Source of the DNA: a virus | Taxonomy: Duplodnaviria > Heunggongvirae > Uroviricota > Caudoviricetes | Reading direction: 5' to 3' (one strand) | Length of the DNA stretch: 8,171 bases | Virus record (IMG/VR): IMGVR_UViG_2778261420_000020 | Coordinates: 1 to 8,171 of that record | Shown: piece by piece, positions 1-6,559 of the stretch | How positions within the stretch are numbered: the first letter of the stretch is position 1 | How the letters are laid out: each line of letters starts with the position of its first letter | Translations under genes and position numbers: made by a program | The notes under the pieces: generated by a model | The model's input: the letters and a program-made list of their open reading frames with translations, nothing else | Databases searched by the model: none | What the model was told of the DNA's origin: nothing

Positions 1-744
1 TCAGATTCCCTGGTGAGTAAGAATTTTACTTTCTGAACTCCTCTGAGAGTATTGACTTGGAGAAACACCAAAATAACGTCTAAATACATAAGTAAAGTAT
101 GAGACACTGGCATAACCACAGACCTTAGCTACTTTACTAATAGGATAACAACGAGTGCTGAGTAAATATTCAGCCATTTGCATCCTCTCATCAAGTATGA
201 TCTTACTGAATGATATCCCCTCTTCTTTCAATTTCCTCTTTAGTAAACTTTCGCTGAGATATAATCTTGATGATATATCCTTAAGACGCCATGGTGCAGA
301 TAAATCCGTATGAATAATCGTTTTAACTTTAGCCCCTGTGCTTTTCAAACATCCAAACAGAAATACTCCAAATTGTTTTTCAGAAGAAAATGCAGAGAGA
401 CATGTAAAAGCAATAGACTCATCAAAAATTTCTATGTATTCAGCACAGTGATTAGCCCAACTAATTAATCCTTTAATTAAACTGAAGTCAGCAAAGTTTA
501 TTTTTAAATAAGATGGATATTCCCTACAATCAGAAATATCCCTTAAGTTATTAGCTTTCAAATAGCGACTAATAAACTCAGCGCCAAAATCCGCCACTAT
601 CACTCTTTCAGGATATGTCAGAAAAAAATCTCTAGAGCTAGAGTCGACAAGTACAGATGAACCTCTCTCCAGAAACACACTCTCTTTTCCGAAATAAACA
701 TCAAAGGACTCCAAAATCAATATAACTGAACATGTGGTTGCCAT
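1..744 (-). CDS. AraC/XylS-family transcriptional regulator (complete, 247 aa; stop codon is the first three bases of the window)
   Basis: The C-terminal ~100 aa carry the two helix-turn-helix units typical of AraC/XylS regulators (e.g. ...SRLYLSESLLKRKLKEEGISFSKIILDERMQMAEYLL... and ...ISKVAKVCGYASVSYFTYVFRRYFGVSPSQY). ATG start at 742..744. The gene is AT-rich and lies outside the tRNA-fragment boundary, so it is flank rather than prophage. Confidence 0.85.
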   Translation of the reverse strand: MATTCSVILILESFDVYFGKESVFLERGSSVLVDSSSRDFFLTYPERVIVADFGAEFISRYLKANNLRDISDCREYPSYLKINFADFSLIKGLISWANHCAEYIEIFDESIAFTCLSAFSSEKQFGVFLFGCLKSTGAKVKTIIHTDLSAPWRLKDISSRLYLSESLLKRKLKEEGISFSKIILDERMQMAEYLLSTRCYPISKVAKVCGYASVSYFTYVFRRYFGVSPSQYSQRSSESKILTHQGI

Positions 745-1328
745 ATCATCCGCCCAATTTAACTGAAACCAGGATGAAGTATATGCATATAAAGTTCACT
801 TTGCCAAACTTCAGTATAAAAAACCACATAAAAAATAGGGTGTGATAAAAAATACCGTAACAATAAAGCAAAGGATTATAAATTCCGTTACAGTTACAAA
901 TGATACTCAAGAAACAATTCCTTAGGAAAAACTTATTTACAGCCAATAAGTAAGACACTTATATGATATCAAGTTTTCATAAAACATAACTAGGCTAAAT
1001 AGCTGCGCCTAATACCGCTACACTTTTGCCAGCCCATGTTTGCCTCCGGGTATTGACCCCTTCTCTACGCAACTTCAGTTCCCACCACCAACTTTGCGGC
1101 AGCTTTGTAGGATAAATGTCTAAAAGAATAATGGTAACCGATAAGAAAACGACTGAATAACTGCAGATTTTCGCTCAAAACCTTCCTGTCAGATCCATAG
1201 CGAATCAAGTGCTGAATGTCACAGTATCGAACAGAAAACAGTGACGATCTAACCCTTCAAGAATATTCTACGATTGTTCTGTTTAGGAAAAGCAAGGCGG
1301 GAAGTCGGGAGATAAGTCATTGATAAAG

Positions 1329-1394
1329 TGGCGGAGAGAGGGGGATTTGAACCCCCGGTAGAGTTGCCCCTACTCCGGTTTTCGAGACCGGTCC
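1329..1394 (-). other. Partial tRNA-Ser(CGA) 3' segment (anticodon stem to CCA end), a putative prophage attachment-site repeat; not a functional tRNA
   Basis: The reverse complement reads GACCGGTCTCGAAAACCGGAGTAGGGGCAACTCTACCGGGGGTTCAAATCCCCCTCTCTCCGCCA: anticodon loop with CGA, long variable arm, T-arm GGGGGTTCAAATCCCCC, acceptor 3' strand and CCA. It matches enterobacterial serU as I recall it. The acceptor 5' strand (GGAGAGA...) and D-arm are absent upstream, so this is only the 3' part. Confidence 0.7.
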
Positions 1395-1474
1395 AATCAT
1401 CAAACGAAACATAAAATTAATTCACATTATGAGGAAAAGTATCTTTTTTGTACTATGTAAATTCAAAGACTTAG

Positions 1475-2344
<870 letters not shown>

Positions 2345-2404
2345 GTCTTTAAGTGATAAGCATAAACCGCAGCACGATCTTCTTGCATACGACGTGCTAC
2401 GGTT

Positions 2405-2815
2405 TCATTTATCTCCGACCGGAAACTTCTTATACAGTGTCGATATACCAACATCATAGATGATCGCCACCTTCTGGCGAGGAACGCCTGATGCAATTAA
2501 TCGTCCGGCCTGCTCCCATTGTTCTGGTGTAAGTTTGGGGCGACGTCCACCAATTCATCCCTGTGCGCGAGCTGCTTCCAGTCCAGCTTTTGTTCGTTCA
2601 ACAATCAGTTCACGCTCCATTTCAGCCAGGGCACCCATCACATGAAAAAAAAAGCGCCCCATTGGGGTACTGGTATCAATTGAATCCGTCAGACTACGAA
2701 AGTTGATGCCTCGTTCGCGCAACTCCTCCACCAGCACGACAAGATGCCACATACTGCGTCCCAGTCGGTCCAGTTTCCAGACCACCAGCGTGTCACCTGC
2801 CGATAATGTCCTATT
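2405..2815 (-). pseudogene. Serine DNA invertase remnant (Pin/Gin/Hin/Cin family): N-terminal ~47 codons missing, including the catalytic-serine region, plus an in-frame TGA at 2555..2557
   Basis: The translation RTLSAGDTLVVWKLDRLGRSM...GINFRSLTDSIDTSTPMGRFFFHVMGALAEMERELIVERTKAGLEAARAQG, then a stop, then IGGRRPKLTPEQWEQAGRLIASGVPRQKVAIIYDVGISTLYKKFPVGDK, is the recognisable Din-family invertase core and C-terminal HTH. The expected N-terminus (...GYVRVSTxxQ...) is not found in any frame. The TGA sits where these invertases have Arg (QGRIGG). Confidence 0.85.
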
Positions 2816-2872
2816 GAAATCAGTGTTAACCTCTACAACCAATTTGCTGGTATTGCCTGGCCTGAAGGTAAA

Positions 2873-3163
2873 ATGCTTGGTGCAGATAGCACTGGACTGC
2901 CCGCTTGGGTCGATGCGCCGCCTCCAACGCATGAAGAGCTTATTGAAATTACTCAATCAGAAAGACAGCTACTAATTAACCAGGCCAACGAATACATGAA
3001 CAGTAAACAATGGCCCGGTAAAGCCGCTATTGGTCGTCTGAAAGGTGACGAACTGGCGCAATATAATTTGTGGCTGGATTATCTGGACGCACTGGAACTG
3101 GTTGATACTTCCGGTGCGCCAGATATTGAATGGCCTACGCCTCCGGCAGTTCAGGCCAGATGA
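2873..3163 (+). pseudogene. Tail-fibre assembly protein, alternative copy (Tfa'/U'-like), 5'-truncated remnant; C-terminal ~96 codons (frame is open back to 2807)
   Basis: The C-terminus ...LWLDYLDALELVDTSGAPDIEWPTPPA matches the conserved Tfa C-terminal motif also present in the intact minus-strand tfa (...ALDYIDALTATDTSTAPDVIWPELPEA). It converges on and overlaps tfa by 29 nt. The remnant is too short to be a full Tfa and abuts the truncated invertase. Confidence 0.6.
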
Positions 3164-3737
3164 CATCCGGCGCGGTGCTGGTATCTGTTGCCGTCAACGC
3201 GTCAATATAATCCAGCGCAACGTTAAGCCGGGTGGTTTCTGCCTGCGTCAGCTTCCGCCCGGCCTGCAATTTCAACTGAATCAGACTAATGGAAACCATT
3301 GCAGCATCAATCAGTGACTGACGCTGTGCTTCTGCCGCGTCTACTGCGGCGCTATGCTGTGCCTCGGTATCTGTCACCCATTTCTCACCATCCCATTTAT
3401 CGTATGGAGATAAAGGGGCGATAGTGGTTGTATTTTCAGGGTAATCACCCGGAGCTGTGATTTCTTTTGATTCTCCTGTTTCAGTGCTATAGACCGTTTC
3501 ACCACGATGGTCTGGCACATATCCCCATGAGTTAAAATCTACAGAACGGCAGATAACATAACCCTCCCTATGTATACCAGGTGCATCCAGGCAGGAATAT
3601 GCCGGGATACCAACACCAACGGCAAGATATTCACTTGAAGTGGAAATATATTCCCGAGTTTCACCATCATAGTTATAAACAGTAATATCCCCTGCCTTCG
3701 TAGCAATAAACTCGCTATTTAATACAGCGTTATCCAT
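3135..3737 (-). CDS. Tail-fibre assembly protein (Tfa / Mu U-like)
   Basis: 200 aa with the conserved C-terminal motif (...LNVALDYIDALTATDTSTAPDVIWP...). It lies immediately downstream of the tail-fibre gene, and its start codon overlaps the fibre stop codon (TAATG). Confidence 0.85.
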   Translation of the reverse strand: MDNAVLNSEFIATKAGDITVYNYDGETREYISTSSEYLAVGVGIPAYSCLDAPGIHREGYVICRSVDFNSWGYVPDHRGETVYSTETGESKEITAPGDYPENTTTIAPLSPYDKWDGEKWVTDTEAQHSAAVDAAEAQRQSLIDAAMVSISLIQLKLQAGRKLTQAETTRLNVALDYIDALTATDTSTAPDVIWPELPEA

Positions 3738-4507
3738 TATGCAGCCCTCACAATGTAGTTAAATGCAACGTTCACCGGGCGAGTTTCATTGGCGGTATTT
3801 GCCACCCTTGACATATCGAAATCAAATGTTGTGACACCATGCCCTCCACTACCTACGCCTGTAACCGCTGTTAATCCAGTAGTCAGATAGTTATTACCGT
3901 TATGACGAAATGGACCATTGGTAACTAAATCTTTAAAAAGCTGAATTTTCCCTATTGAACCAGTGACGTTTTGCATTGCATGCTCCTGTGAAGCCAATAG
4001 AATCCTTCCGGGGTCAATGCCTCTCCCGTCATCCCAGCCACGAATAAACTCACCGCGTAAATCAGGCAATTTATTTGTCGGGTAAGCCTTTGCCAGTTCC
4101 GGGTATTCTTCAGCAGAAAATGCCGCACCGTTGCATTTCAGCCAGCCTGTTGGCGGAGTGGCGGAAGGCCACGGAACAGGCACACCAACGGGTAATGCCG
4201 AACCTTCTCCCAAACCAAGGTTTTCGAGAGCCGTTTTCACCGTGCCATCCGATTTGATATCGCCAAACGGATTCTTGCGGCTTAACAGCAGCGCATGAAG
4301 CGCGGTAAGCAACTGGTCGTTTCGCCCCTTCTCCAGGCTGGCACCGGATGCCTCCACCACGCCACAAAGCTCTTCCTGCAACATGTCAAAGTAGTCATCA
4401 TCAAGATCGGTGGCAGGCGTGCCAGTCTGGGGGTTACCACGGGTAAAACCGTTCTTACCCGCGCCGAACTTATCCTTCTGCGCGGTTTTCGTGTCTATGC
4501 GATGCAT
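3737..4507 (-). CDS. Tail-fibre protein (short side tail fibre with a phage tail-collar domain)
   Basis: A tail-collar-like motif block is present (...[45 protein letters not shown]...). The N-terminal region is typical of inversion-type fibre genes and contains a crossover-like site. Gene order is baseplate, then fibre, then tfa. Confidence 0.85.
4205..4230. other. Candidate invertase crossover site (hix/gix/pix-like 26-bp site) embedded in the tail-fibre coding sequence
   Basis: TTCTCCCAAACCAAGGTTTTCGAGAG contains the conserved AAACC-NN-GGTTT core of Din-family crossover sites (about 20/26 identical to hixL as I remember it). It encodes LENLGLGE at residues 94-101 of the fibre, the expected constant/variable junction. 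Confidence 0.5.
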
Positions 4508-5095: not shown

Positions 5096-6144
5096 GAAAT
5101 CGTCCCCAGTACCGCCAGTTCATTTTTTGCAATGGAGATATTGTCTGCCGGTGCAAGCAACTGATGGCTGTATTCCCCGTTCGCACCGGAAATCGCCTCA
5201 CTGATACGCGATACCTTCAGTTCTCCCTGCGGATAACCATCACGCAGCAGGAACGAACGCAACTCCGCGGTGATGGCAGCCCGTATTTCCGGTGTGTCCG
5301 GCGTCACGCGAATATGAAAATCCACCGTATGTGCCACCGGCCTGAACACATACAAATCAGAGCCTGCCACCGGGGCCAGTGGCCCGATATGTTGTCTTGC
5401 CGCCGTTTCCGTTGATTCTTCCGGAATGGGATTAATCAGGTCACTGCTGGCAATCATCACACCAACAGTTCCCGTTCCCATCCAGTGACGGTATGTCCAT
5501 GCGCGGGTAATGCCGGGCACTTCTTTAGCCCAGACGACATAGTCCCCGTCAGCCCCGCCCTGAGGCGTCCAGTAATAGCGCTCAATGACACGGGCGCGCC
5601 ACGTTTCCAGATCTTCAGTATCAAATCCGCCTGTCAGGGTATCTGCCACACCGGACGACGGCAGACCATTCACCGGCGTGACCAGGATTAATGCCGTACC
5701 GTCGTCAGCGTTACCGACCGCGCCTGCAGTTGAGCAGGCGATCGGCACGCGCAGGACTCCACCGGAGCTGGTTGCATCGGCAGTTGCCGTGTACTGAACC
5801 AGGTCATCGCGCTGAATAACACTCCCGGCGGTCACCTTCAGGCCATCGCTGACGCCTTCCCAGCGCATATACCCGCTGGCAGCTGTGGCACCCTTGCGCG
5901 GACACCGTTTCATCGCAGCATGTCGCGCCAGCCAGGACTCATCGCACAGGTCAGGCAGCATGTTCATTGCCAGATAATCGATGTAACCGTAAACCGTATG
6001 CAGCGCCGCCGCATACACCTTTGCCCGCACGTCTTCATCCATGCGCCGGAGCGTGTCGCTGACGTCCAGCCTGGCGAATAAATCGTTACGGAGCATACTG
6101 ATATTTTCTGCCAGCGTCGGGCGCTGAAATTCACTGTCCGCCAT
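5086..6144 (-). CDS. Baseplate J-like protein (Mu gp47-like)
   Basis: 352 aa; size and position (after the gp46-like gene, before the gp48-like gene) match the Mu-type baseplate order. High-GC coding region with overlapping start and stop codons with its neighbours. Confidence 0.8.
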
Positions 6145-6559
6145 GCGTTATCGCACTCCACAGATCATCAAAAGAAATCATTACCGGTCCGTCACGACGC
6201 CAGAGGGTGATACTGTTACCCAGTTCATTAATCCCGGTGCGGCGGATATCCAGATCAATACGGGACACCACGCCGTCATCAATCATCCATTGCAGGCATT
6301 CGCGGATATACCCCCTTACCGTCAGCACCAGCTGATTGGTCAGTTTGCTGCGCTGAAGCAGCCACAGTCGGGAGCCGTAACGGTCATTCTGTACCGCAGG
6401 CCAGGTATCCCCCCACCATCCCATCGGGACGTCGGCGTTGTCATCAGGCTCCGCCCGCCGCCAGGTGAACAGGGAAATCACCACGGCGCGGGTCAGCGGG
6501 TCCAGCGGTGCGCTGGCACTGGTGCGTTTGCCGTTCACCGTCAGCCACAGTTCCATCAT
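6131..6559 (-). CDS. Phage GP46-family baseplate protein (Mu gp46-like)
   Basis: 142 aa; size and position between the gpV-like and J-like genes. 4-nt overlap with the upstream gene and 14-nt overlap with the downstream gene. Confidence 0.75.
   Translation of the reverse strand: MMELWLTVNGKRTSASAPLDPLTRAVVISLFTWRRAEPDDNADVPMGWWGDTWPAVQNDRYGSRLWLLQRSKLTNQLVLTVRGYIRECLQWMIDDGVVSRIDLDIRRTGINELGNSITLWRRDGPVMISFDDLWSAITHGGQ

Follow-up and report, generated by a model that had tools for sequence, protein, structure and literature searches.

Serine DNA invertases depend on an N-terminal active site, two crossover sites in inverted orientation, supercoiled DNA and an enhancer bound by Fis, and their nucleophilic serine sits in a YVRVS motif (Ser9 in Gin, Ser10 in Hin). 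Invertase genes are also known in decayed form, as in K-12, where pinH is annotated as an invertase pseudogene. In the G segment of Mu and the C segment of P1, inverted by Gin and Cin, inversion switches the C-terminus of the tail fibre together with its chaperone. The e14 P segment of K-12 is inverted by PinE (Plasterk and van de Putte, 1985; Mehta et al., 2004; both as cited in PMC4272514), and its layout runs from the constant part of the fibre gene through a crossover site to a tip with its tfa gene, then to tfa' with the alternative tip, a second site and finally pin. For Hin, the recombinational enhancer is a 65-bp element, separated by about 100 bp from the hin-proximal hix site (PMC3798978). 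Invertases also act on segments other than their own: PinQ of the Qin prophage inverts the e14 P segment in trans, and StfE2, a fibre chimera produced from the inverted e14 segment, blocks T2 adsorption (PMC12529663), while two invertases are described as acting on the Salmonella H segment in a reference cited in PMC4272514.

The DNA analysed here, referred to as the window, is a stretch of 8171 bases that carries the e14 P layout in damaged form. It very probably holds the pseudogene of a PinE-type, Fis-dependent invertase at the end of an E. coli prophage, where one deletion of ~0.67-0.70 kb froze a fibre switch and was followed by neutral decay. The locus is a decayed textbook system of the e14 P, Mu G and P1 C type, and its condition is ordinary prophage decay of an already known kind. 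While the Mu and P1 systems are functional, this one keeps a single crossover site and a single pair of fibre tip and chaperone.

The prophage end and its features

Over its full length, the window matches the end of a draft E. coli contig (GCA_002521845.1, NORX01000037.1; L012) at 100% identity. The chromosomal flank of this contig, with paoC, paoD and part of a LysR gene, matches many E. coli chromosomes at 99.8% identity, and the host of the prophage is E. coli. From left to right, the window contains an AraC-family gene, a tRNA-Ser fragment, a GIY-YIG gene, the invertase remnant, the tail-fibre cassette and Mu-like baseplate genes, with the following features:

1-744, minus strand: AraC-family regulator gene
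about 1320-1394, tRNA sense on the minus strand: 3' fragment of tRNA-Ser, 75 nt
1571-2344, plus strand: gene for a 257-aa LEM-3-like GIY-YIG domain protein, between the prophage end and pin
2405-2812, minus strand: pinE pseudogene remnant, codons 50-184 plus stop (2405-2407) of a 184-aa PinE-type serine DNA invertase
2555-2557, minus strand: in-frame TGA (CGA to TGA, R135*), separating the HTH domain from what is left of the catalytic domain
2555-2956, minus strand: mechanical hybrid open reading frame of 133 aa, 47-48 antisense tfa' codons fused to Pin residues 50-134
2747-2749, minus strand: R71W substitution (CGG to TGG) in the remnant
2811-2814: deletion junction, between 2812 and 2813; CT at 2811-2812 is a 2-bp microhomology found at both ancestral breakpoints
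2813-3163, plus strand: remnant of tfa', the tail-fibre assembly gene of the alternative orientation, without its first 79 nt and without the upstream tip gene
2813-4217: surviving part (about 1.4 kb) of a former ~1.86 kb invertible segment, now presumably fixed
3135-3737, minus strand: tfa, intact 200-aa tail-fibre assembly protein, expressed orientation
3737-4507, minus strand: tail-fibre gene, 256 aa with a Collar domain, constant N-terminal part and variable tip joined at the crossover site
4205-4230: sole surviving 26-bp crossover site, TTCTCCCAAACCAAGGTTTTCGAGAG, inside the fibre gene
right of the tail-fibre cassette: Mu-like baseplate genes gp48, gp47/J, gp46, gp45 and gp44

The tRNA-Ser fragment at 1320-1394 is 100% identical to annotated E. 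coli tRNA-Ser genes, ARAGORN finds no whole tRNA at this position, and the fragment is presumably the duplicate of an att site at the prophage end. The GIY-YIG gene is kept at the same position in O157:H7 and NCTC9041 and looks like a moron or accessory gene. In one metagenome contig (L014), the prophage end, from window position 1051 onwards, adjoins zinT and a cytochrome-b gene and not the AraC/paoD side, which suggests another insertion site or a prophage-mediated rearrangement.

Among complete genomes, the best relatives are E. coli O157:H7 strains, in which a prophage of ~35 kb sits at thrW, with a portal gene cut by an IS, and ends in genes annotated as GIY-YIG, pinE (555 bp), gp53-like, tfa, tfaE, tail fibre, YmfQ and baseplate J. 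We use three groups of relatives for comparison: the O157:H7 locus (L001), that of NCTC9041 (L002) and a set of P2-like E. coli prophages (L003, L005-L008 and L010). In this related O157:H7 prophage at thrW (L019, 25524-27445), the pinE switch is intact, the portal gene is truncated by IS1203 and an HNH endonuclease gene is partial, so an intact switch can sit in an otherwise defective prophage. The recombinase belongs to the same family as that of e14, as PGAP names the intact orthologues pinE and the DNA of K-12 pinE matches the remnant at 93%. The backbone of the window prophage has a Mu-like baseplate module and not that of e14.

The pinE remnant

Translation of the minus strand from 2812 to 2405 gives RTLSAGDTLVVWKLDRLGRS...PVGDK*, which aligns with residues 50-184 of the intact 184-aa PinE proteins of O157:H7 and NCTC9041 at 97-98% identity. 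The Pfam Resolvase profile is matched at positions 59-143 of 145 only (E = 4e-31), compared with positions 2-144 for the intact O157 PinE, while the HTH_7 profile is matched over its full length (E = 2.5e-14), and the Gin sequences of structures 3UJ3 and 4M6F align to the remnant from Gin residue 51 (E = 6e-41). The first-pass annotation, made from the sequence alone, had proposed an N-terminally deleted invertase remnant, and translation, Pfam and the alignments to Gin and PinE all bear this out. Its limits, with homology from about residue 48 and a span of 2405-2815, were correct to within 2 residues and 3 bases, the actual start being residue 50 and the actual span 2405-2812.

With both Resolvase and HTH_7 matched, the remnant clearly belongs, as judged from its sequence, to the Pin/Gin/Cin/Hin family of small serine recombinases by descent. 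Two features of a working member of this family are gone. Codons 1-49, and with them the N-terminal active-site segment, are absent, and the frame that should run unbroken across the catalytic and DNA-binding domains is interrupted by the TGA at codon 135. Alignment to intact PinE confirms the earlier claim that the catalytic-serine segment and the region upstream of it are missing. The possibility that an intact N-terminus had been overlooked because of a frameshift was also addressed by tblastn, where a search of all frames of the window for the missing 49 Pin residues returned only chance matches of 6-19 aa (E > 1); a hidden N-terminus of this kind is ruled out.

In addition to the truncation, which the earlier description had right, the remnant carries three changes relative to intact PinE that it had passed over: the in-frame TGA (R135*), R71W and A149E. 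Compared with O157 pinE, there are 3 non-synonymous or nonsense and 5 synonymous codon changes, against 5 and 24, respectively, between two intact pinE genes, a ratio that is consistent with relaxed constraint. By descent the remnant is a pinE gene, but one that should no longer function as an invertase. A run of nine A residues at 2642-2650, read as T9 on the coding strand, specifies FFF in the remnant and is prone to slippage, although it is in frame here; in O157 pinE, codon 104 is TTC and the run is shorter.

Upstream of the invertase homology, the frame continues for 47 more codons as the antisense of tfa', just as the first reading of the sequence had it. The resulting hybrid open reading frame (2555-2956) has a TTG start and, because of the TGA at codon 135, lacks a DNA-binding domain. 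A sigma-70 promoter scan finds no promoter-like site upstream of it on its strand, and look-ups of its product from the TTG start and from an ATG start return no recorded gene. It is probably not a gene.

The deletion and the tail-fibre cassette

The endpoints of the deletion were mapped by alignment to intact inversion loci (L001, L002 and L003), a kind of comparison that the earlier note had proposed with the inversion regions of Mu, P1 and e14. The junction reads ...GATAATGTCCT up to position 2812 and continues with ATTGAAATCAG... from 2813. Against O157:H7, window positions 1-2812 are collinear with L001 3001-5810 and window positions 2893-3768 with L001 6592-7467, so that with the block register kept about 704 bp (5811-6514) are missing. 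Against NCTC9041, window positions 1373-2812 correspond to L002 2227-3663 and window positions 2811-2939 to L002 4332-4460 (100% identity), leaving 668 bp (3664-4331) absent. The breakpoint registers in NCTC9041 are ATGTCCT before and GAGC after the left breakpoint, and TCAGCT before and ATTG after the right one, while a third relative (L003) gives the same right-hand breakpoint, 79 nt into tfa'. The size of the deletion is given as a range of 0.67-0.70 kb because the exact ancestor, with this pin allele and this cassette both intact, was not found in one genome. The proposal that a single deletion fused the interior of tfa' to that of the invertase therefore holds, with the junction between 2812 and 2813, although the loss amounts to 668 to ~704 bp and not to the ~1 kb first estimated.

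What disappeared is 49 codons (147 nt) of pin, the spacer upstream of pin, the crossover site proximal to pin, the whole of a gp53-like alternative fibre-tip gene and the first 79 nt of tfa'. A tblastn search of every frame of the window finds no credible coding remnant of the alternative tip (S'v). Relative to e14, then, the window has neither the pin-proximal site nor the alternative tip, and its pin gene is without codons 1-49 and has a nonsense codon. The promoter of pin was probably lost with them, and the position of the deletion implies that the recombinational enhancer would have gone together with codons 1-49 if it lay where it does in the related systems. Neither breakpoint resembles the 26-bp crossover site, and an illegitimate, microhomology-mediated event is the likeliest mechanism of the deletion.

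Intact relatives illustrate what the cassette once was. In each of L001, L002, L003, L005 and L010 there are two crossover sites in inverted orientation, the second of which lies beside pin, at the 5' terminus of the gene for the alternative tip; it falls within the deleted interval in O157:H7 (L001 6013-6038) and in NCTC9041 (L002 3865-3890), and a search of these two loci with up to 6 mismatches finds only the two genuine sites. The P2-like cassettes (L003, L005-L008 and L010) keep both sites, a gp53-like alternative tip of 123-138 aa, a full-length tfa' of 143 aa and an invertase of 185-197 aa, the gene for which is only about 80% identical to the remnant. The cassette of L003 (tfa' 143 aa, alternative tip 138 aa, invertase 197 aa) encodes a Tfa identical to that of the window, and window 2811-4229 aligns to L003 6927-5509 at 99.4% identity with no gaps. 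While the window cassette occurs in one orientation, the P2-like cassettes are found in both: in L005 and L010 (5529-7384 of each), the flanks are 99.9% identical and the same 1856-bp segment lies in opposite orientations, with switch points inside the 26-bp sites. These natural inversion isomers show that the complete cassette does invert in nature.

In the 8.2-kb window, the search for crossover sites gives a single match even with 3 mismatches allowed (0 expected by chance), and instead of two opposed pairs of tip and chaperone there is one complete pair (3135-4507). The locus should hence no longer be an invertible segment. With a single site, inversion should be impossible even if an invertase is supplied in trans, and since the alternative tip is also gone, the fibre gene (3737-4507) and tfa (3135-3737) should be permanently fixed. 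Both are intact open reading frames in the expressed orientation; the fibre gene matches the O157 'tail fiber protein' in length and location, and an identical Tfa protein occurs in many P2-like and Mu-like-tail prophages. A single orientation across the segment, collinear with the window, is found in 8/8 assemblies that bear the deletion, which is weak evidence as these assemblies are related. The first-pass annotation had expected the fibre to be locked in one orientation, and the one remaining site, the missing alternative tip and the collinear contigs support this at the level of sequence, from which an absence of inversion in living cells would follow.

The truncated tfa' (2813-3163) is recognized by the Caudo_TAP profile (E = 1.5e-27, positions 35-130 of 131) and is now silent cargo. 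It is a mosaic: 2811-2939 matches tfa' of NCTC9041 at 100% identity, and 2927-3176 matches, at 98%, the other tfa gene of that cassette, which points the opposite way. Recombination between the inverted homologies of tfa and tfa', with an exchange of their C-terminal halves, would be expected to leave such a mosaic.

Distribution of the allele and competing explanations

Nine loci carry the exact junction and, as L004 and L011 are one and the same contig, they represent 8 independent contigs, from 2 NCBI isolate assemblies, 2 Logan sequencing-run assemblies and 4 ENA metagenome assemblies. Carriers of the allele include GCA_002521845.1, GCA_017779625.1 and the sequencing runs ERR1987538 and ERR7365117. 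Megablast against 5426 complete E. coli genomes gives no contiguous match to the junction, the sole match covering at least 80% of the junction region being the intact NCTC9041 locus, in two pieces, and an exact scan for the 58-nt junction finds none in GTDB species-representative genomes. The deletion allele is real and confined to a minor lineage. Of the contigs with the deletion, L015 still reads CGA at codon 135, and L017, which carries the TGA, still reads CGG at codon 71. The deletion is thus the shared and oldest lesion, with the point lesions having come later. Three of the four possible combinations of R135* and R71W occur among the deletion-bearing contigs, which is not tree-like and calls for recombination, a recurrent C-to-T change or a chimeric metagenome consensus.

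These observations allow the steps of the decay to be set out. A single illegitimate deletion at a 2-bp microhomology would have joined pin codon 50 to nucleotide 80 of tfa', taking with it the nucleophilic-serine segment (YVRVST), the region upstream of pin, the pin-proximal site, the alternative tip and the start of tfa'. The recombinational enhancer would have been lost as well if, as in the Hin, Gin and Cin systems, it lay in the 5' part of the invertase gene. R135* and R71W would then have been added by neutral decay, leaving a fixed tail fibre and tfa that the invertase of another prophage could not be expected to flip.

Could the invertase instead be intact, with the truncation an artefact of a missed frameshift, a sequencing error or a misassembly across inverted repeats? 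The internal inverted homology of tfa and tfa' is of a kind known to confuse short-read assemblers, and the window does lie at the end of a draft contig. However, neither Pin N-terminal nor alternative-tip (S'v) sequence is present in any frame, the identical junction recurs in the 8 independent contigs, and the allele has gathered later mutations of its own, so that this explanation is almost certainly wrong. Slightly less remote, but still very unlikely, is a segment that can be inverted by a Pin-family invertase of another prophage. Action in trans is documented by PinQ on e14 P and, from the work cited in PMC4272514, by the two invertases of Salmonella H (see above), but it needs two inverted sites, of which the 8.2-kb window retains a single one even when 3 mismatches are allowed; in intact relatives the other site lies within the deleted interval, and no second fibre tip remains that could be expressed. 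The origin of the deletion might also be sought in the invertase itself, through recombination of a true site with a direct-orientation pseudo-site and not through illegitimate recombination. Under this scheme, the candidate sequences for Pin cleavage would be ATGTCCTGAGC or TCAGCTATTGA. Serine invertases occasionally make deletions on aberrant substrates, and the 2-bp overlap at both breakpoints has the length of the core dinucleotide. Nevertheless, neither breakpoint is at or like a 26-bp site with up to 6 mismatches in L001 and L002, and the genuine outer site is inside the deleted DNA and not at its edge. An invertase-mediated deletion at pseudo-sites is accordingly highly improbable, and we reject it on the grounds that the breakpoints are unlike the crossover site.

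There is likewise little chance that the locus was put to a new use, either with the 133-aa product acting as a dead Pin fragment that hinders or dampens other Pin invertases, or with the frozen arrangement domesticated for phage defence as a receptor-blocking pair of tip and Tfa kept by the host. In favour of such a role are the existence of the open reading frame, the retention of the helix-E region, which forms the dimer/tetramer interface in Gin (3UJ3 alignment), the precedent of StfE2 and its block of T2 adsorption (PMC12529663), and the persistence of the allele in several samples. Against it, the hybrid frame has no promoter-like site upstream, starts with TTG, has no DNA-binding domain, carries R71W and is recorded by no gene caller, while the lesions vary between contigs, as neutral decay predicts, and none of the 5426 complete E. 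coli genomes has the allele. The account of one illegitimate deletion followed by neutral decay is the one that we retain.

On this account, the correct annotation is a pinE pseudogene, with an N-terminal deletion and a nonsense codon, beside a truncated tfa', and the prophage is best regarded as having a monomorphic fibre. As an example of the loss of a host-range switch, the locus is clean and datable, with the deletion first and point lesions after, and the junction sequence, absent from the complete genomes and present in several draft and metagenome assemblies, is a handy lineage marker. Beyond correct annotation, its importance is small.

Decayed invertases at prophage ends are common, and the same prophage family offers further cases. 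The Gp45 baseplate protein is present in >16,000 blocks of the searched collection, and among other prophages with the same baseplate genes or Gp45 protein, L021 and L023 lack the invertase wholly, whereas L020 (14801-14992) and L022 (14527-14862) hold resolvase fragments of 63 and 111 aa. These two fragments occupy the same place as the window remnant but differ from it in their endpoints and carry independent lesions. Invertase decay in these four prophages is independent, and this prophage family has lost the switch repeatedly.
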